Positions 1,556-62,658 of a stretch of DNA of 64,000 nt are shown piece by piece (the stretch's first letter is position 1; each line of letters opens with the position of its first letter). The position numbers and the translations under genes were made by a program. This DNA is from an uncultured Phycisphaeraceae bacterium (GTDB lineage: Bacteria; Planctomycetota; Phycisphaerae; Phycisphaerales; UBA1924): the NCBI GenBank assembly GCA_964588385.1, contig CAZPPG010000016.1, forward strand, positions 1,060 to 65,059, in the 5' to 3' direction. The notes beneath the pieces are model-generated. The model saw only the letters and a list, made by a program, of their open reading frames with translations. It was not told where the DNA came from and did not search any database.

Positions 1556-2427
1556 GGGCGGCCCTCCCCGCCCGGCGACAACCGCAGCACGACCTCGCCC
1601 ACGCGGTCCAGTCGCAGCGTCGGCCTCACCGTCACCACTGTCCTCAGCGGCTGGTTGGGGGCCGGCTCGGCGGTTTCGACCACGCCGATCAGGAGCATCT
1701 GTGCCGCCCGGGGCCAGGCGGAATCCTGCAGGAGCACGCGCATGCCCGGCTCGATCGCCCGGCGCGGCACGATCCCGCTCATGTCCTCGACGGGTCCGCT
1801 GAGCGTTCCCGCGCCGGTCGGCTTCAGCAGGCAGGTGGGCCCGATGCTGGTGGCGTCCAGCAGGATCATCCCGGTGATCGATCCCGTTCCCGGATCGGTG
1901 ATGGGGAAGACATCACACAGGCGCTCGGCGACATCCTGGACGCGCCCGACAAGCTGCACGCCCGCCGTGGTCGCGATCGCGCCGCGGTCAACCCCCGACG
2001 CTCGTCCGGCGCGCACACGCAGCACCGTGCTGGAGCGGTCGCTGGACGACGCGATGACCGGTGCGACCAACTGCCTGACCTTTGCCTCGGGATAGAGCGC
2101 GGCGCCGGCCTGCAGGTCCGCGATCAGGCCGCGCAGGCGCGCGACCTCCTCCCGCTCAACCCGATAGAGGCGCAGGAGTTCTTCCCGCTCCTGCTCCAGT
2201 CGCCTGATCTGTTCGGGCTGGGCGCTGCGGGGCGTGGCCGGGGCGAGCCAACGCGCGATTCGGGCCGAGGGGTCGCTGACCGGGGCGACGAGTGTGGCGA
2301 GCAGGTCGCCGAACCATCCGGCCCACGCGGTCATGCGAAGGGGCAGAAGACCCATGACAAGCAGCACCAGGATCGACCCGGCGAGCAATCGCCTCGACGG
2401 CTTTGTCTGCTGCGTCATCTGCGCCAT
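1552..2427 (-). CDS. mreC: rod shape-determining protein MreC
   Basis: 291 aa. N-terminal TM helix (LLAGSILVLLVMGLLPL), coiled-coil stretch (IRRLEQEREELLRLYRVEREEVARLRGLIADL), then a beta-rich C-terminal region. Located between mreB and mreD. Confidence 0.8.
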   Translation of the reverse strand: MAQMTQQTKPSRRLLAGSILVLLVMGLLPLRMTAWAGWFGDLLATLVAPVSDPSARIARWLAPATPRSAQPEQIRRLEQEREELLRLYRVEREEVARLRGLIADLQAGAALYPEAKVRQLVAPVIASSSDRSSTVLRVRAGRASGVDRGAIATTAGVQLVGRVQDVAERLCDVFPITDPGTGSITGMILLDATSIGPTCLLKPTGAGTLSGPVEDMSGIVPRRAIEPGMRVLLQDSAWPRAAQMLLIGVVETAEPAPNQPLRTVVTVRPTLRLDRVGEVVLRLSPGGEGRP

Positions 2428-2479
2428 GGTGGGTCAGTTGCAAGAGCCGGAACCGCTGGCGGGCCGGGTCACCGAGTTC

Positions 2480-3568
2480 TCAGATTGAGACATCGTTCTC
2501 GAGCGTGTCCTTCCACTCCTCGAAGTTCTCCAGGAAGATGCACGTGCCCCTGGCCACGCACGTCAGGGGGTCGTCCGCGAGCCGCACGCCGAGTCCCGTG
2601 GCCTTCGACAACACCTTGTCGAGCCCGCGGAGCAGCGCGCCGCCGCCGGCCAGGGCGATGCCGTTCTCGACGAGGTCCGCCGAAAGCTCCGGCTCGGCCC
2701 GTTCGAGCGTCCGCGTGACGGCCTCGGTGATCGCGCCCACCGGTTCGCTGAGGGCCTCGCGCACCTCATCGGAGGTGATGACGGTCTTGCGGGGCAGGCC
2801 CGAGATCATGTCCCGGCCGCGGACCTCCATGGAGGCGGGCTCGCCGGCGGGCGCGGCGGATCCGATCTCGATCTTGATGCGCTCGGCCGACTGCTCGCCG
2901 ATCATCATGTTGTAAGCGCGCTTCATGTGGTTGATGATGGCTTCATCCAGGTCGTCGCCTGCGACGCGCACCGATTCGCAGACCGCGATGTCCGCCAGCG
3001 ACAGGATCGCCACCTCGGTGGTGCCGCCGCCGATGTCGACGATCATCGACGCCGTCGCCTCGGCGACAGGCAGCCCCGCACCGATCGCCGCGGCGAGCGG
3101 CTCTTCGATCAGGTAGGTCATCCGCGCTCCTGCCCGCATGGAGGAGTCAAAGACGGCCCGCTTCTCGACAGCCGTGATGCCCGACGGAATCGAGATCACC
3201 ACCCGCGGCCCGAAGATTCTCGACTTTCCGTTCACCTTATTGATGAAGTACTTGAGCATCGCCTCGGTGATCTCAAAGTCGGAGATCACGCCGTCCTTGA
3301 GCGGTCGGATGGCCGTGATGGAGCCGGGCGTCTTGCCCAGCATCTCCTTGGCCATCCAGCCCACGGCCTGGCCGTCCTTGAGCACCTGATTCGTGCCCTT
3401 CTTGACGGCCACCACCGATGGCTCATTGAGAACGATGCCCTGTCCCCGTACGGAGACGAGCGTGTTGCACGTGCCCAGGTCGATGCCCATATCGACACTG
3501 AACAGTCCCATGATCCGGTCCATCCACATGGGCTGATCTTCCAGTCGCCGGAGCATCGTCCGGTCCAA
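2480..3568 (-). CDS. mreB: rod shape-determining actin homolog MreB
   Basis: Actin-fold motifs DMGIDLGTCNTLV, IVDIGGGTTEVA and IALAGGGALLRGLD, with full-length MreB likeness. The track start 3568 is TTG. ATG codons at 3529, 3523 or 3511 (MGLFSVDMGIDLG) are more plausible starts. Confidence 0.95.
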   Translation of the reverse strand: MDRTMLRRLEDQPMWMDRIMGLFSVDMGIDLGTCNTLVSVRGQGIVLNEPSVVAVKKGTNQVLKDGQAVGWMAKEMLGKTPGSITAIRPLKDGVISDFEITEAMLKYFINKVNGKSRIFGPRVVISIPSGITAVEKRAVFDSSMRAGARMTYLIEEPLAAAIGAGLPVAEATASMIVDIGGGTTEVAILSLADIAVCESVRVAGDDLDEAIINHMKRAYNMMIGEQSAERIKIEIGSAAPAGEPASMEVRGRDMISGLPRKTVITSDEVREALSEPVGAITEAVTRTLERAEPELSADLVENGIALAGGGALLRGLDKVLSKATGLGVRLADDPLTCVARGTCIFLENFEEWKDTLENDVSI

Positions 3569-3730
3569 ATTCCCGCCGCGCAGTCGGGCAGCCGTCCTGC
3601 AACCCGATCCCGCCGGCCCACAGATTATCGGCCATTCGACCGTTTGACCACATTCCCCTTACTTATCCCTGAACTCCTTCCCTCTGAAACGGCCCGCTTC
3701 GACACCCCGGCCGACCCTCCATGCTCCACC

Positions 3731-3771
3731 AAGACGAAAGCCGCACGCGCCATCGGGGTGGCACGTGCGGC
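3731..3771 (-). terminator. candidate intrinsic terminator after the PspA-like gene
   Basis: 8-bp stem GCCGCACG/CGTGCGGC (3740-3747 with 3764-3771). On the minus strand it is followed by TTTCGTCTT. It lies about 55 nt downstream of the stop at 3827. Confidence 0.45.
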
Positions 3772-3826
3772 ACGCGGAGATTGGTTCTTCGCGGGGGCTG
3801 ACCGGCCGTTCTGAGCCGGGTCCCGC

Positions 3827-4768
3827 TCAGTCGGTGCGGGCGATCTGGTTGGGATCGACCTTGGCCGTCTTGGGCTCGGGGGTGATCTCCAGCACCGGGG
3901 GCTGGATTTCGATCTGCGTCGGCCGGATCAGGCCCGGACGCGCCGACTCGATATCCAACTGGTGCTTGGCGCGCTGCTCGTAGCTGGAAGCCCCGCCCGC
4001 GGTCGCCAGGCGCTGGAGTTCGGCCTCCTGGCGAGCCCTGATGTCCGCCATTTTGCCGGTGAGCTGGTCCAGCGACGCGACCTCGAAGCGGTCGATGCTG
4101 TCCAGCGTCTCCTGACGCTTGGACATGAGCTCGATCATGCGGTCGTTGCGGCTGATGGCGTCGACCTGGCGGTCCAGTGACCAGAGCTGCGACTGGAAGT
4201 CCGCGCGCTCGGTTTCGAGCTGCGTGAGCAGGGTCGAGAGGCGGTCGCGCTGCTGGGTGAGCAGGCCGAGGTCACGCTCGATGTCGGCCGCCCGGGCCGC
4301 GTAGGCGGAGCGCGACTGGCTGATGGTGTTGGCCTTGGAATAGGCCTCTTCCATGTCCATGGACTGGTTGTCGACGCGGACGCGGATGACGTGTCCGACG
4401 TTCTGGACGCGGGCTTCCTCGGCCTTGGCAAGGAGGCCCTGGACCTGGATGAGATCCTCGTCGGCAAGTGCGACGACGCGCTGGCTGACGGCCAGCTCAC
4501 GGTTCAACTGGGTGAACTGGGCCTCCAGTTCGGCCAGATCGCCTCGGACATCGGCGATCTTCTGGGGATACTGCCCCTCCAGCTCGCGGAGCTGGGCGCG
4601 AAGGGCGATGGGATCCTCAATGTGCTTGTCGATGCTTGAGTTGATCTTCTGCTTGGTCTGCTGGAAGACCGCCGCGACGCGCTGCGGACCCGCAACGGCG
4701 ACGGCCGCGCCCCCGACCAGGGCAACGATGAGAGCGCTACGAACAAGGCAACGGGTGATGCACGGCAT
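3827..4768 (-). CDS. membrane-anchored coiled-coil protein, PspA/IM30-like
   Basis: ATG 4768 has GGAGG 8 nt upstream and yields MPCITRCLVRSALIVALVGGAAVAVAG (anchor/signal). The rest is heptad-rich. IDKHIEDPIALRAQLRELEGQ resembles the N-terminal EDP helix of PspA. The longer track ORF (to 4963) looks like an artefactual extension. Confidence 0.6.
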   Translation of the reverse strand: MPCITRCLVRSALIVALVGGAAVAVAGPQRVAAVFQQTKQKINSSIDKHIEDPIALRAQLRELEGQYPQKIADVRGDLAELEAQFTQLNRELAVSQRVVALADEDLIQVQGLLAKAEEARVQNVGHVIRVRVDNQSMDMEEAYSKANTISQSRSAYAARAADIERDLGLLTQQRDRLSTLLTQLETERADFQSQLWSLDRQVDAISRNDRMIELMSKRQETLDSIDRFEVASLDQLTGKMADIRARQEAELQRLATAGGASSYEQRAKHQLDIESARPGLIRPTQIEIQPPVLEITPEPKTAKVDPNQIARTD

Positions 4769-5849: not shown

Positions 5850-8525
5850 ATGGGAAGCGCCGTCGGCATCATCTTCATCATCCTCGGCGTGCTGGTCGGT
5901 GTTGTCATCGCCGCCGTGCTCGTCATGTATCTCGTTGTGCCCCTCTTCAAGGCAATCGGCTGGATCTTCACCCGCATCTTCGGTTTCATCGGCGGCGAGA
6001 TCGCCGACCTTGCCCGGCTCATCGGCGCCCTTATCACATCCGTCATCTTTCTTCCGCTCATCCTCGGCACCGTCGTCATCGGACGCTGGTCCGCGTCCGC
6101 GCACTTCGGGCGCGCGTTCCAGCGCGAGCTGGCCACCATGGGCGGGTGTCTGTACCGCATGTTCCTCGGGCACCCAGCCCGACTCTTCGGCCTCGCGCCG
6201 CTTACCGAGGGGCTTGAGCACCGCATCCCGGAGGTTGTCCGTGCCGCGCCGGGCTCCGACAAGCCGGCAGGACGCGCCGGGCAGTTCGAGGGCTACAAGA
6301 TCATCGGCTCGCTCATGGGGGGCGGCTCCGGGGCGAAGCTCTATATCGCGGAGCCCGACGCCATCAAGCGCGCCACGTTCGAGCGCCAGGGCTTCGGCGA
6401 CGTCGGACGCGTGGTCATCAAGGTGTTCTCTATCCGTGACGGCAGCACGCTCCCGCAGATCGTGCGCGAGAGCCGCGCTCTGGATGCCGCTCGCAGGCTC
6501 GGCTTCGTCCTTGATCACGATCTGACGCCAGAACGCTTCTTCTACATCACGCGCTATGTTCCCGGCGAGTCGCTCGGACTTGTCACGCAGCAGTTGCACG
6601 CGTCGGGCTCCACCGGCTTGGGCGCGAAGGAGCTCTCGAAGGCGATGAAGTATGTCGCCGACCTCCTCGCCACGCTCGACGCCTACCACAGGGGCGGCCT
6701 CTGGCACAAGGACGTGAAGCCCGACAACATCATCGTGCACGACGACACGGCGCACCTGGTTGACCTCGGCCTCGTCACGCCCCTGCGTTCGGCGATGACG
6801 CTGACCACGCACGGGACGGAGTATTTCCGCGATCCGGAGATGGTCCGCATGGCGCTGAAGGGCGCGAAGGTCCACCAGGTGGACGGCGCCAAGTTCGATG
6901 TGTTCGCCGTCGGCGCGGTTCTCTACTCCGTCATTGAGAACTCGTTCCCTGCCCACGGTGGACTCAGCCAGATCACCAAGCGCTGCCCCGAGTCCCTCCG
7001 CTGGATCGTTCGTCGCGCCATGGCCGATTACGACAAGCGTTATCCCACGGCCAGCGACATGCTCGCGGATCTCGCCGCGCTCCGCGCCGCATCCGACCCC
7101 TTTGCGCTCAGGCCCGCGGACCTTCCCAGCGTTCGCGGCGGGAACGTCGAGCAGCCGCCCCTGCCCCACGCCGACGCCGCGCCCTTCGTCGATGCGGCAC
7201 GCGCTGCGCACGCAGCCTCCGCGGTTCCCCCCCACACGCCTCATGCCCCACATGCTCCCGCCGGTGCGGAGCCGGCCGCACCATCCGCGGCGCCTCCCCC
7301 CGCCTCAGCGCGCACGCGCACACGCCCGCAACTGGTCGTCACCGACTGGTTCAAGGGCCGGTACCGCGTCTCCGGCGAAGAAGCGGTCGCGGCGTCTCCC
7401 TCCGCCCCGAACCCGGGCGCGAGCGGCGCTCGGGCCGCCGCTGCCGCCGCGATGGCCAACGCCGCCGAAGCGATGAACCGCGCCGCCGAGCGATTCGGCT
7501 CCCCGCGAGGCGCTGCGGCGGCTGGTTCCGTTGACCCGCGCGTCGCTCGGGCCGGCTCCCCCGATCCCCACGCGGTCCCTCACGCGCCCTCTCCGGCCCG
7601 AACCCACGCACAGGCCCAACGCGTCCGCGCGATTCCCGATCCGGGCCGCCGCACCGCGCAGGAGCAGCTCCGCTCCGCCCGTGAGAGAGCCGCCGCGGCT
7701 CGCGAGCGAGCTCGCGCCCGCATGTCCGGCCGTCAGAACCCCCGTGCGCACCGGACCGCTCGCGTTGCAGGCGTCAACTCCGGCCTGTCGACCGCCGTCT
7801 TCGGCTTCATCGGCGTCTGCGTCCTCGTCGCGGGGGGCGTGGTGGTCGGCTCGCTTCTCCGGGGCACATCCATCACACCCCAGGGCCCGCGCCTGGTGAT
7901 CGGTGAGGATCCCGCGCTCCTGCCCAACCTCTCACAAAGTCTGTCGGAAGGTGATCCCGTGGCGATTCCTGCCGCTGCGAACTCCGACGACATCGTCAAC
8001 GCCCGGATCGCCGACGCCATGGAGACCGCATCCACTCGCATCATCGAGCTCCAGCAGGTCTTCCGCGAAGCCAGCGAGCTGGCCAGCGTCGCCGCTCAAT
8101 CCCCCGGCGGGACCGTCATCGTGCTCACCGATGTGCTGCCTCCCATGTCGCGCGGCGCCCGCGCTGCCATCGAAGCCGCGACCGCGCGCATGATGGCCTT
8201 CGGCTTCACCCTCGTCGGCAACGTCCCCGGCATTGATGTCGAGGGCGAAGAGATCGATCGCCAGAACGACATCCTCGCCCGCCTCCGCGCCGCCCGTGGC
8301 CAGGTCCCCCTGGGTTCCGACGACGCGACACGCATCTTCCAGCAGTTCCTGGCCGCGAATCCCGAGCATGGCGACGCCATCGTCTGGATCGCGCCCGGTG
8401 AGGATCGCGACGAACCGACCTTCTACCTCGTCGTCCGCAGCGAGACGGGTGAGAGCGGCGTCCGGGCCGATCGCATCCGGCGAACGCTCAGGACGGCCCT
8501 TGAGCACACCGCGCCCCAGTTCTAG
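5850..8525 (+). CDS. membrane Ser/Thr protein kinase (Hanks type) with long low-complexity linker and C-terminal extracytoplasmic domain
   Basis: N-terminal TM helices, then G-loop GSLMGGGSGAKLY, catalytic loop HKDVKPDNIIV, DLG, and GTEYFRDPE. An Ala/Pro-rich segment spans about 7110-7770, followed by a TM helix (AVFGFIGVCVLVAGGVVVGSLL) and a ~220-aa C-terminal domain. Confidence 0.9.
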   Translation: MGSAVGIIFIILGVLVGVVIAAVLVMYLVVPLFKAIGWIFTRIFGFIGGEIADLARLIGALITSVIFLPLILGTVVIGRWSASAHFGRAFQRELATMGGCLYRMFLGHPARLFGLAPLTEGLEHRIPEVVRAAPGSDKPAGRAGQFEGYKIIGSLMGGGSGAKLYIAEPDAIKRATFERQGFGDVGRVVIKVFSIRDGSTLPQIVRESRALDAARRLGFVLDHDLTPERFFYITRYVPGESLGLVTQQLHASGSTGLGAKELSKAMKYVADLLATLDAYHRGGLWHKDVKPDNIIVHDDTAHLVDLGLVTPLRSAMTLTTHGTEYFRDPEMVRMALKGAKVHQVDGAKFDVFAVGAVLYSVIENSFPAHGGLSQITKRCPESLRWIVRRAMADYDKRYPTASDMLADLAALRAASDPFALRPADLPSVRGGNVEQPPLPHADAAPFVDAARAAHAASAVPPHTPHAPHAPAGAEPAAPSAAPPPASARTRTRPQLVVTDWFKGRYRVSGEEAVAASPSAPNPGASGARAAAAAAMANAAEAMNRAAERFGSPRGAAAAGSVDPRVARAGSPDPHAVPHAPSPARTHAQAQRVRAIPDPGRRTAQEQLRSARERAAAARERARARMSGRQNPRAHRTARVAGVNSGLSTAVFGFIGVCVLVAGGVVVGSLLRGTSITPQGPRLVIGEDPALLPNLSQSLSEGDPVAIPAAANSDDIVNARIADAMETASTRIIELQQVFREASELASVAAQSPGGTVIVLTDVLPPMSRGARAAIEAATARMMAFGFTLVGNVPGIDVEGEEIDRQNDILARLRAARGQVPLGSDDATRIFQQFLAANPEHGDAIVWIAPGEDRDEPTFYLVVRSETGESGVRADRIRRTLRTALEHTAPQF

Positions 8526-52570: not shown

Positions 52571-53536
52571 ATGGCACAGACGCGGCCCGGTGGCCCCAAA
52601 TCTATCGATCTCAATGCCTTGGCGCTGCACGAGCTCTCGGATGTCTTGTGCGATTCAGGGCTGGTGGGGCGTCTGCTGGCGTTAGCACGAGATGAGGATC
52701 TCGGGGCCGCGGGCGACATCACGAGCACGGTGGCGATCCCCGAGGGGCATCGCTCAACGTTTCATGTCGTCGCGAGGAACGCGGGCGTGGCGGCGGGACT
52801 GATACCGCTCTATGAGCTGACGAATCTGTATCCGGAAGTTGCGTACGCGCCGACGGTACGGGATGGGGAGCTGGTTGCGCCGGGGCAGACGGTGGCGCGG
52901 ATCGCGGGGCCGACGCGGGAGATTCTCGGTATCGAGCGGGTGTACCTGAATCTCCTCGGGCGGCTCTCGGGGATCGCGGCGCGCACGAGGCAGTTCGTCG
53001 AGGCAATGGGGACGGGGCATCGGGCGCATCTGTATGACACGCGGAAGACGACGCCGGGCTTGCGCGTGCTGGAGAAGTACGCGGTGCGCTGCGGCGGGGG
53101 ACGCAGCCACCGATTCGGCCTCCACGATGCGGTGCTGCTGAAGGACAACCACATCGCGCACGTGCCGATTGGCGAACTGGGGGCGTTCGTTGCGGAGGTC
53201 TCGCGAAAGGCCCGCGCGATCTGGGCGAGCGGGCCCGCGCCCTTGCTCAAGCCGTTCGTCGAGGTCGAGGTGGACACGCTCGATCAGTTTGCCGAGATCC
53301 TGGGGGTTGAGACGGGGCTGGTGGACATCGTGCTGCTGGACAACATGGGGACGGAGAAACTGGAGAGGGCCGTGGCGATGCGAGATGGGGCGGGATCAAA
53401 GATCGAGCTCGAGGCCTCGGGCGGCGTGACGCTGGACACAATCCGTGCGATCGCGATAACGGGTGTGGAGCGGATCAGCGTGGGCTCCATCACGCACGGG
53501 GCAACGGTGCTGGACTTCGGGTTGGATGCGTTGTGA
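52571..53536 (+). CDS. nadC: nicotinate-nucleotide pyrophosphorylase (carboxylating)
   Basis: ATG 52571. Contains ERVYLNLLGRLSGIAARTR, YDTRKTTPGLRVLEKYAVRCGGGRSHRFGLHDAVLLKDNHI and LDNM. Confidence 0.9.
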   Translation: MAQTRPGGPKSIDLNALALHELSDVLCDSGLVGRLLALARDEDLGAAGDITSTVAIPEGHRSTFHVVARNAGVAAGLIPLYELTNLYPEVAYAPTVRDGELVAPGQTVARIAGPTREILGIERVYLNLLGRLSGIAARTRQFVEAMGTGHRAHLYDTRKTTPGLRVLEKYAVRCGGGRSHRFGLHDAVLLKDNHIAHVPIGELGAFVAEVSRKARAIWASGPAPLLKPFVEVEVDTLDQFAEILGVETGLVDIVLLDNMGTEKLERAVAMRDGAGSKIELEASGGVTLDTIRAIAITGVERISVGSITHGATVLDFGLDAL

Positions 53537-54432
53537 CCATGGGACGCGAGAGAGAGGCCGACATTCGCGATGATCGAGCCGCCGGGGCGGATGGCGATGC
53601 GCCGCTGCACACGTGGGCTCCGCGGATCGAGAGGATGATTGCCGCGCGCGAGATCACGCTGATCGATCGCGTGCAGGTGATCGCGAGCACGGGCTCGACC
53701 CAGGACGCGGCCCGTCAGCTCGTCGCGGGACAGGCGAAGAAGGGGCCGGGCGTCTGCGTGCTCGCGGGTGTGCAGACATCCGGACGCGGGCGGCTGGGGC
53801 GGGCGTGGGCGGACGAGAAGGGTCTGGGCCTGGCGATGACCTTGGCGATCGATCCGGGCTGGCTGGCGAACGCGGCATCGGAGACGCTGCCCCTTGCGAT
53901 CGGGCTCGCGGCGTGCCGCGCGTGCGAGGGGGTGATGGGAAGGAAGCACACGCTGGGCCTCCGCTGGCCGAACGATGTGGTCGAGCGGGCCAGAACCGGG
54001 CGGAAGGTCGCGGGCGTTTTGATCGAACGCGGGGGCGCTGATGGGGATGGAGCGGGCGCCGAGATGATGCTGATCGGCATCGGCATCAACGTGCTGCAAC
54101 AGAAGAGCGAGTTCCCGGCCGAGCTGCGTGATCGCGCGGCATCCCTGCGGATGCTCGGCGCGGAGGGCGGGGAGATCCCGACGCGACTCGACGTGGCGTG
54201 CGCGGTGCTGGTCGAGATCGAGCGGGCCCTTGCGCTCGAGACCGATGATCTTCGACGCGCATGGATGAAGCGCGATGTGCTGGTTGGGACGCGCCGGACG
54301 TTCATTTACAACGGCAAGCCCGTGAGCGGCACGGTCGAGGGGATCGATCCCATGAGCCGCATCCTTGTGCGGACGAACCTGGGAAACGTGGTCTCACTGC
54401 CCGCGCTCAGCACTTCAATGGTTCACGAGTGA
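53533..54432 (+). CDS. birA: biotin--[acetyl-CoA-carboxylase] ligase
   Basis: GTG overlaps the nadC stop (GTGA). Contains STGSTQD, GRGRLGRAW, LRWPNDV and KVAGVLIE. Confidence 0.85.
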   Translation: MTMGREREADIRDDRAAGADGDAPLHTWAPRIERMIAAREITLIDRVQVIASTGSTQDAARQLVAGQAKKGPGVCVLAGVQTSGRGRLGRAWADEKGLGLAMTLAIDPGWLANAASETLPLAIGLAACRACEGVMGRKHTLGLRWPNDVVERARTGRKVAGVLIERGGADGDGAGAEMMLIGIGINVLQQKSEFPAELRDRAASLRMLGAEGGEIPTRLDVACAVLVEIERALALETDDLRRAWMKRDVLVGTRRTFIYNGKPVSGTVEGIDPMSRILVRTNLGNVVSLPALSTSMVHE

Positions 54433-54438
54433 GCGCGT

Positions 54439-55620
54439 TCAGTACCCCGCAGCAACATCCACGCAGTTGAGCAGCGGCTCGCCCGCGCCGAAGCGGCGCA
54501 GATTCTCCTTGTAGAGGGCCCACCAGCGCTGGTCGGTCAGCTCGCCATCCGCGGCGACGTGCGGCGTGATGAGCACGTTCGGCGCGCTCCAGAGCGCGTG
54601 GCCCGCGGGCAGTGGCTCGGGATCCGTGACATCGAGGGCCGCGCCCGCGATCCGGCCCTCGTTCAACGCCGCGATGAGGGCGTCGGTGTTGATGATGCGA
54701 CCCCGTGCGATGTTGATGACGTACGCGCCGGGCTTCATCCGGCGGATCATCGCATCGTCGAAAAGGCTTTCTGTCTCGGGAGTGAGCGGCACGCAGATCG
54801 CGACGACATCGGCCTCCGGGAGCATGGCCGCAAGGTCTTGGGGTTTGCCAACCCGTTCGACGTAGTCGGGCGCGGGCGTGTCGCTGCGTCGCGTGGCGAT
54901 GATGCGCATGCCGAAGGCGTGGGCCCGCTGCGCGATCTCGGATCCGATGCCGCCGATGCCGACGATGAGCATGGTGCGGCCCTGCAGCGCAATGGCCTCG
55001 GCCTTCGGGGCCTCTCGCGACCACTCGCCCCGTTCCTGGGCATCGTGGTAGTGGGGGAGTTGGCGCGTGAGGGAGAGCAGCATGCCCATGGCGTGGTCGG
55101 CGATGGCGGGTCCGTGAACGCCCTTGGCATTCGTCACGACCAGATCGGCACGCTCTCGCACGCCGGGGAGCCCGACGAGCCGCTCGACGCCCGCGCTCGG
55201 CGAGTGGACCCAACGGAGGTGCGACGCCGTGGCCAGAAACTCCGGCGTGATCAGGCGCCCGTCCGCGCCATCCGCTTCCGCTGCGTGCTCGAGCGCCTGC
55301 TCGCGGCTGGACACTTGCACAATCCGGACATTGGGCGCGACAGCGCGAGCCTCGGCGATGTGCTCATCACTCAGGCCCATCGCGAGGAATGTGAGCGTGA
55401 CCCTCTCGCGCTCCGCTGCGTCCGCCGGAAGAGGGCGCGCGATGCTCGCACCCTTGAGCGAGCCGGGAAGCTCGGGCTGGGCCGCGGGCGCAGTTGCAGA
55501 TTGGGCCCCACGCTGAACCCCAGGTTGGCCGGATGCTGACTGGCTAAGCGCGGGCGGCGTAACCAGACAGGTCAGCGCGAGGCCCGCGCCGAGGATCGCA
55601 ATGGCGAAGCGGGTTCTCAT
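54439..55620 (-). CDS. D-isomer-specific 2-hydroxyacid dehydrogenase with N-terminal signal-like extension
   Basis: NAD motif GRTMLIVGIGGIGSEIA. Also NIARG and ITPHVA. The N-terminus MRTRFAIAILGAGLALTCLVTPPALSQ looks like a Sec signal. Confidence 0.85.
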   Translation of the reverse strand: MRTRFAIAILGAGLALTCLVTPPALSQSASGQPGVQRGAQSATAPAAQPELPGSLKGASIARPLPADAAERERVTLTFLAMGLSDEHIAEARAVAPNVRIVQVSSREQALEHAAEADGADGRLITPEFLATASHLRWVHSPSAGVERLVGLPGVRERADLVVTNAKGVHGPAIADHAMGMLLSLTRQLPHYHDAQERGEWSREAPKAEAIALQGRTMLIVGIGGIGSEIAQRAHAFGMRIIATRRSDTPAPDYVERVGKPQDLAAMLPEADVVAICVPLTPETESLFDDAMIRRMKPGAYVINIARGRIINTDALIAALNEGRIAGAALDVTDPEPLPAGHALWSAPNVLITPHVAADGELTDQRWWALYKENLRRFGAGEPLLNCVDVAAGY

Positions 55621-55627
55621 CTGTGCA

Positions 55628-56236
55628 TTACTCCTTCACCGGTGTGAGGTCGGTGCCCATGAACTGGACCCAGGTTGTGCCGCCGTCGCGCGACCACTCG
55701 CCGATCTCCAGCCAGCGATCCTCGGTGAGCTCGAGGGTGAAGCGGACGGCGTTGGCCTGCGGGCCGCCGGGAGTCCACCGGATCTTGCCCGTGCCCTCTT
55801 CGATCGTGAGCGTGTTCCGCGTGAAGTCCGCGCCGTTGCGCCGGGCCAGGAAACTGATGCCGCCGGTGCGGGCGTCGTGCTCGATGATGCCCATGGCATC
55901 GTGGCTGACGGTGATCTCACCGCTCGCGGCGTCGGTGGTGTAGCCGTACCCCTCGACAATCAAGGCCGTCCCCGCGAGGTTCCAGTGGATGCGCTCGACG
56001 GCCTCGCCCTCGTGACGCTCGCCGACGGGCGTCATGATCCACGATGTGCCGCGCCACTCGCCGACCATCTTCGCCAGTGCCGTGTCGGCCAGCGGACTGG
56101 TGACTCTGTGGGCGGGTTGGAGGGAGAGCGAGGACGAAGTGTGACCCGACCCCGCGCCGAGCGATACGTTGGTCAAGGTGAACGTGACGCACGTGAACGT
56201 GAGACAGGCAATGGCGATCCGACGAGCATTCTGCAT
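55628..56236 (-). CDS. secreted hypothetical protein (DUF1579/lipocalin-like?)
   Basis: ATG 56236 is preceded by AAGGAG. Signal MQNARRIAIACLTFTCVTFTLTNVSLGAG. Beta-rich body (MVGEWRGTSWIMTP...). The remaining 281 aa of the track ORF is rejected. Confidence 0.65.
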   Translation of the reverse strand: MQNARRIAIACLTFTCVTFTLTNVSLGAGSGHTSSSLSLQPAHRVTSPLADTALAKMVGEWRGTSWIMTPVGERHEGEAVERIHWNLAGTALIVEGYGYTTDAASGEITVSHDAMGIIEHDARTGGISFLARRNGADFTRNTLTIEEGTGKIRWTPGGPQANAVRFTLELTEDRWLEIGEWSRDGGTTWVQFMGTDLTPVKE

Positions 56237-56371
56237 GACGGGCTCCTTGGGGAGGCCCCAGTCTACATGATTGTGGAGGGAGGTCAGCGGTGGGCCTCGG
56301 TGGGCGGCACGGTTCAGGGGCCGAAACCGGCGTCGATTGGATACGCTTGGCAAGTTCAAAGGAGCCCGAGG

Positions 56372-57076
56372 ATGGCGATTGAGGTGATCGGTGCGGGATA
56401 TGGACGGACGGGGACGGCATCGCTGAAGCTGGCGCTTGAGCGGCTCGGCTTTGGACCGTGCCATCACATGGCCGAGGTGCTGCCCAACGTGGAGCGGGTC
56501 GCGCTCTGGGAAGAGATCGGGCGGAGCGCGGAGAGCGGGAAGGGCGTGCCGGGCGCGTTGTGGGATCGGGCGTTCGATGGGTACGGCTCGACGGTGGACT
56601 GGCCGGCGTGCACGCACTGGCGCGCGCTGATGGCGCACGCCCCCAAGGCCAAGGTCATCTTGTCGAAGCGCGACGCCGGCAAGTGGTTTGAGTCGGTGAA
56701 CGCGACGATCCTGAACCCCCAGGGTGTGGAGGGGATGCGGGCCTCGCCGATGGGCGAGATGCTTGAGCGCAACATCTGGCGGCTCTTCGGCGGGCGGCTT
56801 GCGGATCGCGAGCACATGATCGCGTGCTACGAGCGACACAACGAGGAGGTGGCGCGCGGCGTGCCCCGTGAGCGGCTGCTGGTGTTTGATCCGAAGGAGG
56901 GGTGGGAGCCGCTGTGCGCGTTTTTGGGGAGGGATGTGCCGCGTGAGCCGTTTCCGCACGTGAACACGAAGGAGGCGATGGTCGAGTTGATGGCGGAGTT
57001 CGGGGCGATGCTCAGCCGCGGGGAGACGGGTGAGGAGTCGATCCGTACGTTTGCGCGGGGGATGTTCAAGAAGTAA
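56372..57076 (+). CDS. sulfotransferase-family protein
   Basis: ATG 56372 is preceded by AGGAG. Contains a PAPS-loop-like GAGYGRTGTASLKLALERLGFGPCHHM. Also VILSKRD and YERHNEEV. Confidence 0.8.
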   Translation: MAIEVIGAGYGRTGTASLKLALERLGFGPCHHMAEVLPNVERVALWEEIGRSAESGKGVPGALWDRAFDGYGSTVDWPACTHWRALMAHAPKAKVILSKRDAGKWFESVNATILNPQGVEGMRASPMGEMLERNIWRLFGGRLADREHMIACYERHNEEVARGVPRERLLVFDPKEGWEPLCAFLGRDVPREPFPHVNTKEAMVELMAEFGAMLSRGETGEESIRTFARGMFKK

Positions 57077-57166
57077 CACGTGCTGGCGGCCTTCGCGTGG
57101 GATGCTGGGAACCGGAGGACGCCGCGCCGCTCACGAATTAGACGGCATTCTGGCTGAGACTTTGCA

Positions 57167-57706
57167 ATGAAGTACCGGATGCGAGTGATAGCCCCCGCCT
57201 CATCCAAGCGAAACGCACCGCTTGCTCGGGGCGTCTTTGCCTACTCATTCGGCAACGATTGCTGGCGATGGGGCGCCGTTGCTTGCGAATATCCGTGGTT
57301 TGGGCCCGGCGTTGACGGCTACTTGGTCCATTTCTACGACGTCGTGAGTCGCGCAGGCGATGCCGTCCCGGACCTTAGCGCTGGCGGGCTTGTGATTCCG
57401 CCGTGCATCACCAACGCGATGCCATGGAGGCGAGGACTGTTTCGGAACGAGTCGTCGGTCGTGCCGCGAGACGGCCGGAGCATGCCGCGGCATTGCCTTT
57501 GGTCGCCTGAAGACAACTTGTATCGCGATGAGCACGACACAGTGCTCCCGAGCGCATTTGAACCCTGCGGACTTAGGATGCTGGCGGGTATCCAGGCCAT
57601 CGAAGAGCTCTTGCTCTCCGCATCTCTGATGGGCTGCTGGGATGGACGCGGCATCTGGCGACTCTGGCCGCCCCGAGATTGGCGGGGCGTGAGCCGGGCT
57701 CGATGA
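57167..57706 (+). CDS. hypothetical protein (islet ORF-A; faint immunity-protein-like pattern)
   Basis: 179 aa with ordinary-looking composition and no homolog recognised. First ORF of the compositionally atypical islet. Confidence 0.5.
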   Translation: MKYRMRVIAPASSKRNAPLARGVFAYSFGNDCWRWGAVACEYPWFGPGVDGYLVHFYDVVSRAGDAVPDLSAGGLVIPPCITNAMPWRRGLFRNESSVVPRDGRSMPRHCLWSPEDNLYRDEHDTVLPSAFEPCGLRMLAGIQAIEELLLSASLMGCWDGRGIWRLWPPRDWRGVSRAR

Positions 57707-57752
57707 TCATGATGTGACCGCACCAAAGGCCGGGCGTCCGCTTTGCAGGCGA

Positions 57753-57949
57753 GAGCCGGGGGCGTCCGCCCCGCTCCACCAAGGATGCGCCCTTCGGGCG
57801 GTGTGGAGGTCGCTGCGCGGCGGGTTTACCGGGGGTAGCGTTCGCCCCCCCCACACACACCGCTCCCTTGACCCCCGGCTGTCAACTTTCAGCCCTGTCG
57901 GGCTGAAGAGCACCGAGCTTGGCCCAACGCGGCCAATCTGCGGTGGCAC
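57753..57949 (+). repeat. copy 1 of a structured GC-rich element (candidate ncRNA or cassette boundary)
   Basis: Block 1 (57753-57787) is gagccgggggcgtccgccccgctccaccaaggatg. Block 2 (57810-57833) is tcgctgcgcggcgggtttaccggg. A hairpin lies at 57890-57905. Block 3 (57906-57949) is aagagcaccgagcttggcccaacgcggccaatctgcggtggcac. All blocks are shared with copy 2. Confidence 0.7.
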
Positions 57950-58021
57950 GGGGGATGAGCAAGGAATCTTGGTGCGACCTGCGACAATCTGAGGTGGTCG
58001 GCAATCGATAAAGTAGATTCC

Positions 58022-58366
58022 ATGAGCGACACCGCCAATCTCGGAGACTCAGTTTTCTTTGCGGCCCGTTCGGCAACGTTTCGTACGGTGTTTCGTTGCT
58101 TGCGAGCGAGCACTCTAACGAACGCCGAGATTCGCGCACTGCTCAATCGGGAAGAAGAGTTTGATGCGATCGGCGGTTGGGACTTCAGCTCCCTCTCTTT
58201 ACATTCCCTCCGTGTGCTGCAAGAGGTGCTGGCCAAGATTGCAGAGGATCCGGTCGCGGCGTCTTCGCATTGGAACCCGGAGCGGCGACCCATATTCGTG
58301 AGCGACATCGAGAAGTGTCGCAGAAATCTGGACGACCGCATTCGGTGGAGTGAGGGTCGGTCGTGA
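58022..58366 (+). CDS. hypothetical protein (islet ORF-B)
   Basis: 114 aa with helical-looking sequence. No SD-like sequence upstream. Flanked on both sides by the repeated element. Coding status is uncertain. Confidence 0.45.
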   Translation: MSDTANLGDSVFFAARSATFRTVFRCLRASTLTNAEIRALLNREEEFDAIGGWDFSSLSLHSLRVLQEVLAKIAEDPVAASSHWNPERRPIFVSDIEKCRRNLDDRIRWSEGRS

Positions 58367-58410
58367 TCGCTGACTTTGTCCATCGTAAGATGCAGTAGAC
58401 GTAGCGTGAC

Positions 58411-58592
58411 GAGCCGGGGGCGTACGCCTCGCTCCACGAAGGATGTCGCTGCACGACGGGTTTACCGGGCGGCGTTGCCCTCGCGTGGGGGCGGGGCTGC
58501 ATTGCCCCGGGCTCCATTCATGCATCCCGTTGGGATGCTCAGAGTGGAGAAGAGCACCGAGATTGCCGCAGAGCCGGCAACTTCGGTGGCAC
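58411..58592 (+). repeat. copy 2 of the structured GC-rich element
   Basis: Block 1 at 58411-58445, block 2 at 58446-58469, hairpin at 58523-58537, block 3 at 58550-58592. Same order and orientation as copy 1, 658 nt downstream. Confidence 0.7.
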
Positions 58593-58676
58593 TCTCAAGG
58601 AAGGTCGGGGCCACCTGCCTGTCCGTTCCTTGGTTCGCAAGGCCCGAGTAGAGGATGGAGTTCTACATCGATCTGC

Positions 58677-59732
58677 TTACCTGCGCACGGCTGTGAATGT
58701 AAAGAGTTTGTCAAGAAACTCCTTTTCTTCCATTGGCCGCGCAAATATTGAGAGTAGTTCGTCAGAACGAAGAATGCGGTTATATAACGACGTTAGCAGC
58801 CTAGTTGCGCATGAGCCTGCATCTCGAAGTCTGCTTACGTACTTGCTACCACTTGGATATTGATATGGAGGTTCGTTACCATGTACAAATTTGTTTCTCC
58901 AATCATAAATGGTTCGTACCCAATTGAGTACATCCCGAGGGTCATGCGTGTCGTGTAGCAATATCGCAGATACAAGTGCTACTGTCGATTGGTTCATTGC
59001 TTTAGCTGCAAACAGGGCCTCGATTGCAATATGCATGCGAAAAGCAATATCCTGTTGGTAGAGCGGTTGCATTGCACATCCGAACATATAGAGCGAACAC
59101 TCTAGGCGAGAGCCATGTGCTTCGAGTTTCTCGCTTGATGTGAGGCGAGCGAGATTGGCAAAGCGTTCGGCCTGCACTTCATATAGGCGCGAAAAAAGCA
59201 GTGGAAAAGAAGACAAGTCTGATGGCTTCTGGTGTGGCGCGAACCCGGTGCCATGTTCGAGTCTTGGCATGAAGCGGTTTGGTCTGTCGTAAAAAGAGAA
59301 CGTCCTGCCCAGCGCGTCGACTCTTGCTGTGTAGAGGTAGTTCGCGTGACCTGGAAGTGGGCCAATTACTTGCAACGTCGAGACAATCACCTTTGCGACA
59401 GCCTCGGACCAGTGCCACCACTTCAGGTGATCGCCCCAAGGGGCGTCATATTCATATCGGAATAGCAGCCGAACATGATCGGCCTCGATGAAACCACGTT
59501 GCTTACCGATATGCGCCTGCCAGAGAGCTAGATCTCTCTTCGATGGCTTTCCGTAGGAGAGTACGCCGCGATACCGGTCTGGCTTTAGTATACGACGTCG
59601 CGATGAGACGTTCAATGCGCCGACGTAGAGCACGCCGACGAGGAGACATATCTTCGCAGAATACTCTTTATCATGTTCAACAATCAGTGGCTTACGTGAA
59701 TTGCGCGACTTGGGGGCCACTTTAATCCTCAC
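58677..59732 (-). CDS. HEPN-motif protein (Apea/Abi-like architecture), candidate RNase toxin or defence effector
   Basis: 351 aa. The C-terminal helical region carries YDWRNKFVHGNE, an R-x4-H motif at 58881-58898. Very low GC (22 of 60 G+C at 58861-58920). GTG start at 59732 overlaps lepA by 11 nt; the alternative GTG 59720 lies 1 nt after the lepA TAA. Confidence 0.7.
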   Translation of the reverse strand: MRIKVAPKSRNSRKPLIVEHDKEYSAKICLLVGVLYVGALNVSSRRRILKPDRYRGVLSYGKPSKRDLALWQAHIGKQRGFIEADHVRLLFRYEYDAPWGDHLKWWHWSEAVAKVIVSTLQVIGPLPGHANYLYTARVDALGRTFSFYDRPNRFMPRLEHGTGFAPHQKPSDLSSFPLLFSRLYEVQAERFANLARLTSSEKLEAHGSRLECSLYMFGCAMQPLYQQDIAFRMHIAIEALFAAKAMNQSTVALVSAILLHDTHDPRDVLNWVRTIYDWRNKFVHGNEPPYQYPSGSKYVSRLRDAGSCATRLLTSLYNRILRSDELLSIFARPMEEKEFLDKLFTFTAVRR

Positions 59733-61641
59733 TCGTATCCAGCACCGCCATGAACGCCTCCTGGGGGATGTTCACGGAGCCGACGTTCTTCATCCGCTTC
59801 TTGCCTTCCTTCTGCTTCTCGAGCAGCTTGCGCTTACGAGAGACGTCGCCGCCGTAGCACTTGGCGGTGACGTCCTTGCGGAAGGCCTTGATGGTTTCGC
59901 GGGCGATGATCTTGCCGCCGATGGCGGCCTGGAGCGGGATCTCGAACTGGTGGCGGGGGATCTGGCCGCGGAGCTTTGAGAGGATCTGGCGGCCGCGCTG
60001 CTCGGACTTGTCCTTGTGCGTGATGAGCGCGAGGGCCTGCACCGGGTCGCCGTTGATGAGGATGTCAACCTTGACGAGTCGGTCGGGCTCGTAGCCGATG
60101 ATCTCGTAGTCCATGGTGCCATAGCCGCTGGTGATGCCCTTCAACTTGTCGTAGAAGTCGTAGATGATCTCGGCGAGCGGGATGTGGAAGGAGAGCATCT
60201 CGCGCGTGTCGGAGACGAAGGTCTGCGACTTGTAGATGCCGCGGCGTTCCATGCAGAGCTTCATGATGTCGCCGATCTTGTCCTTGGGCAGGATCAGATC
60301 CACGCGGCAGATCGGCTCCTTGATCTCCTCGATCACGCCCGCATCCGGAAGGTCCGCCGGGTTGTGAATCTCTTCCTCGACAAGCTCGCCTCCCTTGCCC
60401 TTCGTTGTCACGATGTAGGACACCGTGGGTGCGGTCTGCACGACCTGCACGCCGCCCTCGCGCTCGAGGCGTTCCTGCACGATGTCCATGTGGAGCAGGC
60501 CGAGGAAGCCGCAGCGGAAGCCGAAGCCGAGCGCCTCGGAGTGCACGGCCTGAAACGTGAACGCCGAGTCGTTGAGCGAGAGCTTCTCGATCGCTTCGCG
60601 GAGTTCCTCGAAGGAGTTGCCGCGTTGTTCTTCATCCGTCGCGGGGTAGAAGTCGCAGAAGACCATCTGGCGCGGCGGCTGGTAGCCCTCGAGGGGCTCG
60701 GCGGCGGGATGGATGTCGAGCGTGATGGTGTCGCCGACGCGGACATCGGCGAGGGTGCGGATGGCGGCGACCATGTAGCCGGTCTCGCCCGCGCTGAGCG
60801 AGGGGACGCGATTGGGCTTGGGTGTGTACTTGCCGAGATCGGTGATCTGGAACGTGCGGCCGAGGCCCATCATGCGGATCTTGTCGCCGACCTTGATGGA
60901 GCCGTCGAACATTCGGATGTAGACGATGACGCCGCGGTAGTCGTCGTAGACCGCGTCGAAGATGAGGGCGCGGGCCTGCGTGATCTCGCTTGGGCGCGGC
61001 GCGGGGAGCTTGTCGCAGATCGCAGCGAGCAGCTCGGGGAGGCCCTGGCCGGTCTTTGCGGAGACGTAGATGCACTCTTCGGCGGGGAAGCCGAGGACTT
61101 GTTCCAGTTCCTGCGCGACCTTGTCGGGCTGGGCCGAGGGGAGGTCGATCTTGTTGATGACGGGGATGATCGTGAGGTTCTCGTTGATCGCGAGGTAGGC
61201 GTTGACGACGGTCTGTGCCTGCACGCCCTGCGTGGAGTCGACGACGAGCAGCGCGCCCTCGCACGCCTTCAACGCGCGCGAGACCTCGTACGTGAAGTCC
61301 ACGTGCCCGGGCGTGTCGATGAAGTTGAGCATGTAGAGCTCGCCGTGGGTGTCGGCTTTGTCCGCGGCGTTCTTGGTCTTGTGCGTGCCCGCCTCGTCGA
61401 CGGGGGCTTCGTAGTCGGTCTCGAGTTCGTCAGCGGTCGCGCCGGGCTTGTGGCGGTGCATGACGGTGACGGCGGAGGCCTTGATGGTGATGCCGCGTTC
61501 GCGCTCGAGGTCCATGGAGTCCAGGAGCTGGTCGCGCGCTTCGCGGGCCGAGACGGCGTTGGTCGCCTGGAGGAGGCGGTCGGCGAGGGTGGACTTGCCG
61601 TGGTCGATGTGGGCGATGATGGAGAAGTTGCGGATGTTCAT
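59722..61641 (-). CDS. lepA: translation elongation factor 4
   Basis: ATG 61641 ([24 protein letters not shown]). Contains [11 protein letters not shown] and NKIDL. Full-length LepA likeness apart from one insertion. Confidence 0.95.
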   Translation of the reverse strand: [639 protein letters not shown]

Positions 61642-61803
61642 GGGAGGGTGAAGGTCGGGCGGGCGGACGTAACCGCTGGCCGGAAAGGGGCTTGCGAATC
61701 GTGCGTGGTGCGGCGACAGCGAGGCCGTCCCGCGTGGGCAGGATGGTATGCGAGGGAATACGAGCACACCGCTCTGGAGAGCGGTGCCGCCGTGAAGCGA
61801 GCG

Positions 61804-62658
61804 TCAGCCCGGCTTCTGCCCAATCACATCGAAGACGGGCGGGAGGAGCATGAACGAGTTGGGGTCGTTGGAGGCCTCGGTCCAGCACGCGAAGAAGTCG
61901 TCGGCATCGCGCTGGGTGATCTCGTTCATCTCAACCAGCCGCGGCACGAAGGACTTCCAGAACGTGGTCGGCCAGTTCCAGTCGGTGCTGCCCGGGCGGG
62001 CCATGCGGTTGTGAGAATCGAGGTGGGTGACCTTCAAGCCCGCGCGGGCCATGATGCCGGGGAGGTTACCGACGAGGTCGGGGTTGCCGCCTCGGGCGCG
62101 CCAGGACCGGGCGACGGCGTCGATGACCTTGGAGAACTCGCGGCGTCTTGGGGCGAGGGTCATGTGCTCGTAGTCGAAGTAGTCCTGCACGACGAAGCGG
62201 CCGTCGGGCTTGAGCAGGCGGGCCACGGCGCGGACGACGGCCTCGGGATCCTTGACGAAGCAGAGGACCCAGCGGGCATAGGCGAGGTCAAAGGAGGCGA
62301 GGGGACTGGGCTGGCTTGCTGCCGCGGCGGCGCGGGCAAGGACTTCGTCGATCTGCTGCACATCGCCGACGTGGGCGGTGATGGTTGGGACGTTGCGGGC
62401 GCGTGCCGCGGCGTTGAGGTCGTTGATGAAGGGCGCGGACTCATCGACGCCGACAAGGCGCCCGGTCGGCCCGGCGATGTGCGCGAGATCGAAGGCGGCG
62501 TAGCCGGGGCCGCAGCCGACATCGAGGATCGACTGGCCGGGCGCGATGCGGGCCTTGGCCCATGCCTCGTGAGCCGCGGCGGACCACAGCCGGTGCTGGA
62601 AACCAAGGCGCCAATGTTCGGCGGCGTCGGTGCCGAGGACGTATTCAGAAGAAGACAT
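61804..62658 (-). CDS. class I SAM-dependent methyltransferase
   Basis: ATG 62658 (MSSSEYVLGTD). SAM motif ILDVGCGPGYAAFDLA, then LVGVDES. Confidence 0.8.
   Translation of the reverse strand: MSSSEYVLGTDAAEHWRLGFQHRLWSAAAHEAWAKARIAPGQSILDVGCGPGYAAFDLAHIAGPTGRLVGVDESAPFINDLNAAARARNVPTITAHVGDVQQIDEVLARAAAAASQPSPLASFDLAYARWVLCFVKDPEAVVRAVARLLKPDGRFVVQDYFDYEHMTLAPRRREFSKVIDAVARSWRARGGNPDLVGNLPGIMARAGLKVTHLDSHNRMARPGSTDWNWPTTFWKSFVPRLVEMNEITQRDADDFFACWTEASNDPNSFMLLPPVFDVIGQKPG

Follow-up and report, generated by a model that had tools for sequence, protein, structure and literature searches.

HEPN toxins and defense effectors are an already known kind of protein, and the closest known system to the locus presented here is ApeA (HEPN_Apea), a single-protein anti-phage system for which structures are available (9hxb and related entries; 10.64898/2026.01.26.701840). 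HEPN proteins are also encoded by integron cassettes (Anantharaman et al. 2013, PMC3710099, Table 1). The locus in question lies within a 64,000-nucleotide (nt) stretch of DNA from an uncultured Phycisphaeraceae bacterium (contig CAZPPG010000016.1; hereafter the window), where a gene for a HEPN-family protein directly follows the housekeeping gene lepA and converges on two small open reading frames (ORFs), ORF-A and ORF-B, and two copies of a structured repeat, E. Our preferred reading, to which we assign a probability of about 0.5, is a composite: the protein would be a stand-alone ApeA-like HEPN RNase of the defense or selfish-toxin kind, the position behind lepA a hypervariable slot, and E an element serving the locus.

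Other described loci share single traits with this one. In type I toxin-antitoxin pairs such as txpA/RatA and bsrG/SR4, a convergent antisense RNA overlaps the 3' end of the toxin gene. In the type III system ToxIN, toxN is preceded by ToxI, a tandem array of 36-nt repeats. Genomic islands that insert into a host gene and supply it with a replacement 3' end carry recombinases. In the window, the gene order is sulfotransferase (+), ORF-A (+), E copy 1, ORF-B (+), E copy 2, HEPN-family gene (-), lepA (-), with the HEPN-family gene convergent with both small ORFs and co-directional with lepA. An initial annotation of the window had described this layout, and its three ORFs and two repeats lie where it placed them; its start codon for the HEPN-family gene, which gave a product of 351 amino acids (aa), is less likely than the GTG at 59720, which gives 347 aa.

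The HEPN-family protein and its likeness to ApeA

The gene, its upstream neighbor and the parts of the protein are as follows.

HEPN-family gene: 58677..59720, - strand; 347 aa from GTG 59720, the same length as NCBI protein P0001; G+C 0.50
Alternative HEPN start: GTG 59732, - strand; would give 351 aa, overlapping lepA
lepA (elongation factor 4, EF4): 59722..61767, - strand; identified with Pfam; upstream co-directional housekeeping gene
N-terminal alpha/beta domain: 59283..59663, - strand; residues ~24-150 (351-aa numbering), from the secondary structure of an AlphaFold (AF2) model
C-terminal all-helical HEPN-like domain: 58689..59207, - strand; residues ~176-348; AF2, high confidence
Putative catalytic HEPN motif R279-N-K-F-V-H284-G285: 58878..58898, - strand; RNKFVHG in translation

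Among seven aligned family members, which are 24-56% identical in pairs, the invariant residues are E238, L240 and F241 of an ExLF helix together with R279, H284 and G285 of the RNxxxHG motif, in which the asparagine after the arginine is replaced by aspartate in one of the seven. The motif conforms to the Rx4-6H pattern of the HEPN superfamily, including the polar residue next to the arginine. AF2 reached a predicted local distance difference test (pLDDT) score of 51 when supplied with only two sequences, and the seven-sequence alignment was used instead, giving a model with a pLDDT of 83.2 and a predicted template modeling (pTM) score of 0.86. When a profile of the C-terminal domain was compared with the PDB, the top match was Ec2ApeA (E 0.017, 18 bits), followed by Ec3ApeA (E 0.51), and ApeA is the only sequence relative of the protein in that database. 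The aligned ApeA segments (345-416 and 482-514) are HEPN helices: an IAxExL helix and an RNxxVH(G/T) catalytic helix align between the two, and R279 falls on R502, within the RNLIVH of Ec2ApeA, a position at which R502A is a catalytic mutant (10.64898/2026.01.26.701840). Because the invariant RNxxxHG and ExLF residues, a profile match to ApeA in register and an all-helical predicted domain point the same way, the C-terminal domain is very probably an ApeA-like HEPN domain. The HEPN motif named in the initial annotation, which corresponds to RNKFVHG at 58878-58898(-), is thus supported, both by the invariance of its R, H and G in seven members and by the match to the HEPN helices of ApeA.

The likeness to ApeA extends to a stand-alone HEPN RNase logic, to N-terminal domains that are non-catalytic and to the lack of an antitoxin gene. 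In other respects, the proteins differ. The window protein is 347 aa long, compared to about 590 aa for ApeA; its N-terminal domain is a beta-rich alpha/beta structure, whereas ApeA has alpha-helical N-terminal and Mid domains and a split HEPN domain; it lacks the stretch (residues ~417-481) that ApeA inserts between the two aligned segments; and it matches neither the PADLOC and Pfam ApeA models nor, in any significant way, a structure by Foldseek. The N-terminal domain has no known relative, Foldseek having given no match at E<=0.001 in PDB or BFVD, and is a candidate sensor or regulatory domain, possibly of a new fold. On these comparisons, the protein belongs to an undescribed family and is not an ApeA.

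The family is also rare. When 1.84 billion cluster representatives were scanned in full with HMMER, there were 9 hits, 6 of them clear members, and a word-indexed search across 5.8 billion proteins yielded only the window protein itself and one relative, P0002 (56% identity). Neither the HEPN-family protein nor ORF-A or ORF-B matched Pfam, NCBIfam, PADLOC, a PHROG of known function or PDB sequences, and the HEPN models of Pfam and NCBIfam gave no match either. The initial annotation was therefore right to regard the 351-aa product as undescribed, inasmuch as Pfam, NCBIfam, PADLOC and PHROG assign it no function. In the literature searched, there was no earlier account of a HEPN gene being coupled to lepA.

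Taken together, these features suggest a rare two-domain protein, in which an alpha/beta domain of a new type is followed by an ApeA-like HEPN domain, and which most likely acts alone as a self-restrained ribonuclease of the abortive-infection/defense or selfish-toxin kind. By analogy with ApeA, the N-terminal domain would hold the HEPN dimer in check pending a signal. Action without a partner is proposed because ApeA works alone and because one family locus, L278, has neither an extra ORF nor an E copy. The expectation, raised earlier for this locus, that a HEPN protein must have a neutralizing partner does not hold for ApeA, itself a single-protein system.

Variation behind lepA and attachment to housekeeping genes

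Contigs were recovered for all family members. The gene follows lepA in three loci: the window, L001 (protein P0002, 56% identity) and L283/L284 (P0006, 25% identity). Over the last 93 nt of lepA, L001 is 98.9% and L283 93.5% identical to the window, compared to 56% and 25% for the HEPN proteins encoded just past those tails. As judged from these sequences, the slot behind lepA is fixed and hypervariable, occupied by highly diverged alleles with non-host codon usage, rather than the site of a one-off recent acquisition. The picture of a recently acquired islet of unclear origin is not supported, since three genomes use the same lepA slot and its alleles are highly diverged.

Two further contigs cover parts of the window. 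L277 is 97.6% identical to positions 53014-58480 without gaps, and it holds ORF-A, E copy 1, ORF-B and the start of E copy 2, stopping just before the HEPN-family gene. L286 is 100% identical to positions 57797-58769. Since L277 and L286 come from other sequencing runs, the assembly is independently supported. Divergence from L277 is uneven across the neighborhood (53533-55620 and onward), at 0.2% in birA, 4.8% in a 2-hydroxyacid dehydrogenase gene, 1.1% in the sulfotransferase gene, 4.3% in ORF-A and 0.9% in ORF-B. This unevenness suggests mosaic recombination among close strains near the locus.

Base composition sets the HEPN-family gene apart. The whole window has a G+C content of 66.6%; a 1,044-nt window over the gene has 0.498, compared to 0.670 +/- 0.024 for windows outside the region, a difference of about 7 standard deviations. 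G+C at third codon positions (GC3) is 0.50 in the HEPN-family gene, 0.64 in ORF-B and 0.70 in ORF-A, compared to 0.83-0.91 in lepA, the sulfotransferase gene, the 2-hydroxyacid dehydrogenase gene and a neighboring 202-aa gene. The initial annotation gave exact counts (22 of 60 nt at 58861-58920 and 39 of 60 at 60001-60060), and its low-G+C islet stands for the HEPN-family gene and, mildly, for ORF-B (overall G+C 0.57); ORF-A, at 0.63, is hardly low, and the anomaly centers on the HEPN-family gene. At every family locus, the HEPN gene is lower in G+C than its surroundings, with GC3 values of 0.38-0.55 except for L280 at 0.72. We infer that the low GC3 is due to selection for weak expression or else to recurrent replacement out of an unseen pool of donors.

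The junction with lepA is tight. In the window it reads ...AGT GAG GAT TAA A GTG..., leaving 1 nt between the lepA stop and the HEPN start, compared to 2 nt in L001 and 5 nt in L283. A GAGGA box (59726-59730) lies within the last codons of lepA (AGT GAG GAT), 5 nt ahead of the HEPN start. Because a start 1 nt past the lepA stop and behind a GAGGA box leaves no room for a promoter of its own, the gene is probably cotranscribed and translationally coupled with lepA. Similar junctions exist elsewhere in the family: the polA-linked member (L278/L279, protein P0008) starts 8 nt past the polA stop in L278, and in L285 the HEPN start GTG overlaps the fumC stop as GTGA. Of the other family loci, L280 lies beside purD and L281 encodes P0005; some members are coupled to no housekeeping gene. 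The HEPN-family ORF of L285 (L285:9260-10450) is about 396 aa at full length, and the public call, P0007, is its last 149 aa only. Downstream of P0005, L281:11191-11787 carries a called ORF of 198 aa that is highly biased, rich in Arg, Cys and Thr and repetitive; the DNA there is rich in GTGCACAC/CCGGGCGG-like repeats and may be a repeat region, not a gene.

The polA-linked locus points to a manner of insertion. In L278 (GCA_028281485.1, JANQJT010000116.1), the last 68 nt of polA occur twice, at 6920-6987 and 8139-8206, as a direct repeat flanking the HEPN gene. The two tails are 72% identical in nucleotides, and 38 aa align at 45% identity (E 4e-7). G+C drops about 190 nt inside polA, and the upstream, functional tail is low in G+C and foreign, with the native, high-G+C tail left as a remnant before a trpB-like gene. 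Because the tail is duplicated around the gene and low G+C begins within polA, the insert came with a polA tail of its own. This substitute tail, and insertion at the 3' ends of lepA, polA and fumC, recall islands that restore 3' ends; unlike those recombinase-bearing islands, the L278 unit measures about 1.3 kb, holds one gene and lacks a recombinase, and in the window no duplicated lepA tail was detectable downstream of the HEPN-family gene.

The structured repeat E and the small open reading frames

E copy 1: 57745..57993, + strand; between ORF-A and ORF-B; 203 bits with covariance model R2; extra CGCCC-UUCG-GGGCG hairpin
E copy 2: 58402..58630, + strand; 229 bits with covariance model R2; 3' end 47 nt from the HEPN stop, antisense

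E is about 220-250 nt long and contains at least 5 separate helices, with conserved blocks split by indels. Between the two window copies, the indels measure 22, 12, 7, 2 and 1 nt, and since they are not multiples of three, E is taken to be non-coding. The match between the copies is beyond chance (shuffles give none), and the rest of the 64-kb window holds no third copy; a weak covariance-model hit at 2684-2787(-) lies within the mreB coding sequence and was rejected as chance. Neither strand of 55000-62000 matched an Rfam 15 family at E<=1. Copies also occur in L001 (three or four), L283 (two), L008 (one, with its 5' blocks duplicated internally) and L285 (one diverged 3' domain). BLAST of 276 loci found a single true extra copy, that in L008, and among the matches listed from pattern scans of genome, metagenome and viral contigs there were almost only chance ones. 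Between genomes, E is 70-78% identical in nucleotides, far better kept than the genes that flank it.

The helices of E covary. In a five-helix model of 11 copies, 87% of cells are paired and both partners vary in 10 of 29 pairs, whereas none of 500 shuffles reaches the observed value and slid partners give 0-3 such pairs, figures that refer to an alignment fitted to the structure being tested. Compensatory changes include GGGGC/GCCCC to GCGGC/GCCGC, CCGGGGG/CCCCCGG to CCACGGG/CCCGTGG, TTGGCC/GGCCAA to TTGCCG/CGGCAA and, in L285, CACCG/CGGTG to CACGA/TCGTG. Folding z-scores of the two window copies are -2.7 and -3.5. The claim that the repeat is real and structured therefore survives closer analysis, given its covarying helices. 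Several copies have extra or variable hairpins closed by UUCG, which favor an RNA read from the + strand of the window; wobble pairs (9 G-U vs 6 A-C) do not discriminate between the strands. The likeliest identity of E is a structured RNA in the service of the locus, with a single-stranded DNA structure as a less likely one, and among Phycisphaeraceae sequences it makes a good candidate for a structured RNA family not described before. A scan for sigma-70 promoters and intrinsic terminators over 56900-59900 found nothing near E beyond shuffle expectation.

Within the 3' domain (57908-57990 and 58552-58626), an outer helix, CACCG/CGGUG, and a terminal hairpin, GGUGGCAC/GUGCCACC, share GGUG. Because of this overlap, both cannot form fully at once, and the domain may be a structural switch. 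The loop of the terminal hairpin carries a conserved CAAGGAA, and a second AAGGA, which is AUGGA in L277, follows the 5' hairpin.

The placement of E is regular in the lepA loci, where a copy stands at every gene junction in one orientation throughout. Its 3' end lies about 8-50 nt from the HEPN stop, always antisense, in the window, L001, L283 and L285, or four of the seven family loci. L008 is a metagenome-assembled genome (Phycisphaeraceae bacterium ACE_PLA1, JAHBWV010000001.1). An ORF adjoining its E copy, at 3566-4291(-), has a weak match to REP-associated tyrosine transposases (RAYTs; REP, repetitive extragenic palindrome), at NCBIfam E 6.7e-6, below cutoff (L008:3150-4291), and palindromes GAACCCAGGGACT..AGTCCCTGGGTTC lie at 3557-3590, just past the stop of that ORF, and at 4210-4245, inside its 5' end. 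A second ORF, at 2043-2918(-), has a weak match to a transposase helix-turn-helix (HTH). Another frame, 3508-4407(-), was considered as a hidden HEPN homolog and rejected as a junk frame with no similarity.

The small ORFs and the gene that precedes them are as follows.

ORF-A: 57167..57706, + strand; 179 aa; function not assigned
ORF-B: 58022..58366, + strand; 114 aa; orphan; called as a gene in L277
Sulfotransferase: 56372-57076, + strand; 234 aa by the gene calls of the near-identical L277

ORF-A differs from L277 by 23 substitutions, distributed 4/5/14 by codon position, and has a homolog in L001 (34% identity, E 1e-26) whose orientation relative to E is reversed; it drew one hit only from the 5.8 billion proteins. 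By these signs, ORF-A is a real gene. ORF-B, with only 3 substitutions relative to L277 and no homologs in related loci, is plausibly coding, with weak support. The corresponding places are taken by unrelated ORFs, one of 127 aa with a membrane anchor in L001 and one of 123 aa in L283. Neither ORF-A nor ORF-B accompanies the polA- and fumC-linked family members, and the polA-linked L278 has no extra ORF of any kind. Because ORF-B lacks homologs in the related loci, ORF-A recurs in one other locus and is inverted there, and the polA and fumC members lack both, the two are, on sequence grounds, not conserved partners of the HEPN gene. The initial annotation had named them as candidate partners, and a comparison of co-occurrence across the family loci speaks against it. 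As it also reported, no known antitoxin is present: neither ORF-A nor ORF-B nor the small ORFs of related loci contain a nucleoside triphosphate (NTP)-transferase, minimal nucleotidyltransferase (MNT), Xre or other antitoxin domain.

Weighing explanations for the locus

In the composite reading, the HEPN-family gene would be transcribed with, and translationally coupled to, lepA, and alleles at the slot would turn over, with variable orphan ORFs beyond and an E copy marking each junction. E itself would be either a convergent regulatory or antitoxin-like RNA directed at the HEPN mRNA or protein, or a recombination or insulation module between cassettes. Several results weigh against this reading. 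The ApeA match is borderline at 18 bits, no PADLOC or Pfam ApeA/HEPN model matched any of the 7 family members at E<=1, and whole-chain Foldseek of PDB and BFVD gave nothing significant, the best HEPN protein being Csm6 at rank 12 with a probability of 0.23. No known defense genes were found nearby, and neither tblastn of phage and plasmid collections nor a scan of IMG/VR revealed relatives of the protein; a phage or plasmid origin is for this reason unsupported, and a role in defense rests on analogy. E was not detectable at the HEPN loci L278, L280 and L281, and in L008 it stands between unrelated ORFs with no HEPN gene. Finally, relatives were compared on short metagenomic contigs that in L001 and L283 reach only 93 nt into lepA. 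A sharper version, which we regard as quite unlikely, would be a new class of minimal selfish or defense cassette: a lone HEPN RNase gene would insert precisely at the 3' termini of essential genes (lepA, polA and fumC), replacing the host tail at least once, and would so exploit the transcription and translation of these genes; a dedicated structured RNA (E), encoded antisense at the 3' end of the HEPN gene, would restrain, guide or exchange it, and close relatives would rapidly swap its alleles.

The regular position of E could also mean that the locus is, as the initial annotation read it, a toxin-antitoxin module, in which E RNA, in a type I- or type III-like manner, or else ORF-A or ORF-B, neutralizes a HEPN toxin. 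In four diverged loci, E follows the HEPN gene immediately on its 3' side and is antisense to it each time, and it is far better conserved than the flanking genes, with covarying helices. RNA-like, it points at the HEPN 3' end as RatA and SR4 point at their toxins; a convergent transcript could pair with the HEPN mRNA or be bound by that mRNA or the protein, and the GGUG shared by helices P5-outer and P6 is compatible with a switch. We nonetheless consider such a module unlikely, since E and the HEPN gene do not go strictly together, E being absent from the polA (L278), purD (L280) and L281 loci, present in L008 without a HEPN gene and present also after ORF-A and ORF-B. The toxins of the type I loci are small membrane peptides, not 347-aa RNases. 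A ToxIN arrangement was rejected because the E copies are 220-250 nt, not tandem, and lie 3' of the HEPN gene on the opposite strand, not in a short-repeat array upstream of a toxin. A HEPN-MNT pair (type II/VII) was likewise rejected, there being no adjacent minimal nucleotidyltransferase gene, and neither small ORF makes up for this: both lack antitoxin domains, ORF-B is not conserved, and ORF-A occurs in two of three lepA loci in either orientation.

E might instead have no functional tie to the HEPN gene and be a lineage-specific intergenic repeat that gathers in a recombination hotspot, whether as DNA like REPs or miniature inverted-repeat transposable elements (MITEs), as a cassette-boundary recombination site, or as a generic terminator or mRNA stabilizer. 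This idea, possible though doubtful to us, accommodates the way E parts every islet gene in one orientation in the window, L001 and L283, while the genes between copies vary by genome and ORF-A is inverted in L001, a pattern resembling cassette shuffling; an E copy lies opposite the 3' end of each gene, where a terminator or stabilizer would be expected, and in L008 E sits beside the weak RAYT-like and transposase-HTH ORFs. Like integron attC arrays, the locus combines a HEPN gene among small orphan ORFs, structured repeats in one orientation and variable content. However, an attC site spans 57-141 nt and folds into one imperfect hairpin bearing R''/R' (GTTRRRY) cores, whereas E is multi-helix; the HEPN gene is joined to the lepA operon with no attI/Pc ahead, and ORF-A appears in both orientations. 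An attC or integron reading was rejected because inspection of E found no GTTRRRY/RYYYAAC cores and no integrase was seen, though integrases were not searched systematically. A REP/REPIN-RAYT origin was also rejected, E not being a short (20-40 nt) palindrome and the window having no RAYT-like ORF, terminal inverted repeats or target duplications; the RAYT-like ORF of L008 has its own, different palindromes. Only two copies exist in 64 kb, both within the islet, and copies diverge as much within as between genomes while their helices are kept by compensatory changes, a pattern that speaks for selection on structure and against recent transposition.

A third account, that the protein is a lineage-specific housekeeping RNase or translation factor tied to LepA, can claim the tight coupling to lepA in three genomes and the lack of recognized defense genes nearby. 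It appears very improbable, given that other members are coupled to polA, to fumC or to nothing, that the family is extremely rare, that its proteins are 25-56% identical beside lepA tails that are 94-99% identical, that GC3 is foreign-like at 0.5, and that the tail replacement in the polA copy indicates insertion.

If the composite reading is true, it would add to the single-protein immune and toxin RNases a compact HEPN effector family of about 60% the size of ApeA with an unrelated, possibly new sensor fold. The genomic habit is itself unusual, joining residence at the tail of essential housekeeping genes to extreme allelic turnover at a fixed slot and non-host codon usage, and it is relevant to how genomes keep defense or toxin genes weakly expressed and trade them when no mobile-element machinery is recognizable. 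The combination of housekeeping-gene-tail attachment with extreme allelic turnover may be new, as may E; with E placed so constantly against the HEPN gene, a regulatory or antitoxin role is amenable to direct testing.

The window has no tRNA gene, in agreement with the initial annotation. Upstream of the islet, a + strand ORF of 491 aa (55601-57076) is an over-extension of the sulfotransferase gene; according to the gene calls of L277, a separate 202-aa gene with no assigned function lies at 55628-56236 (-), where substitutions are distributed 1/3/21 by codon position.

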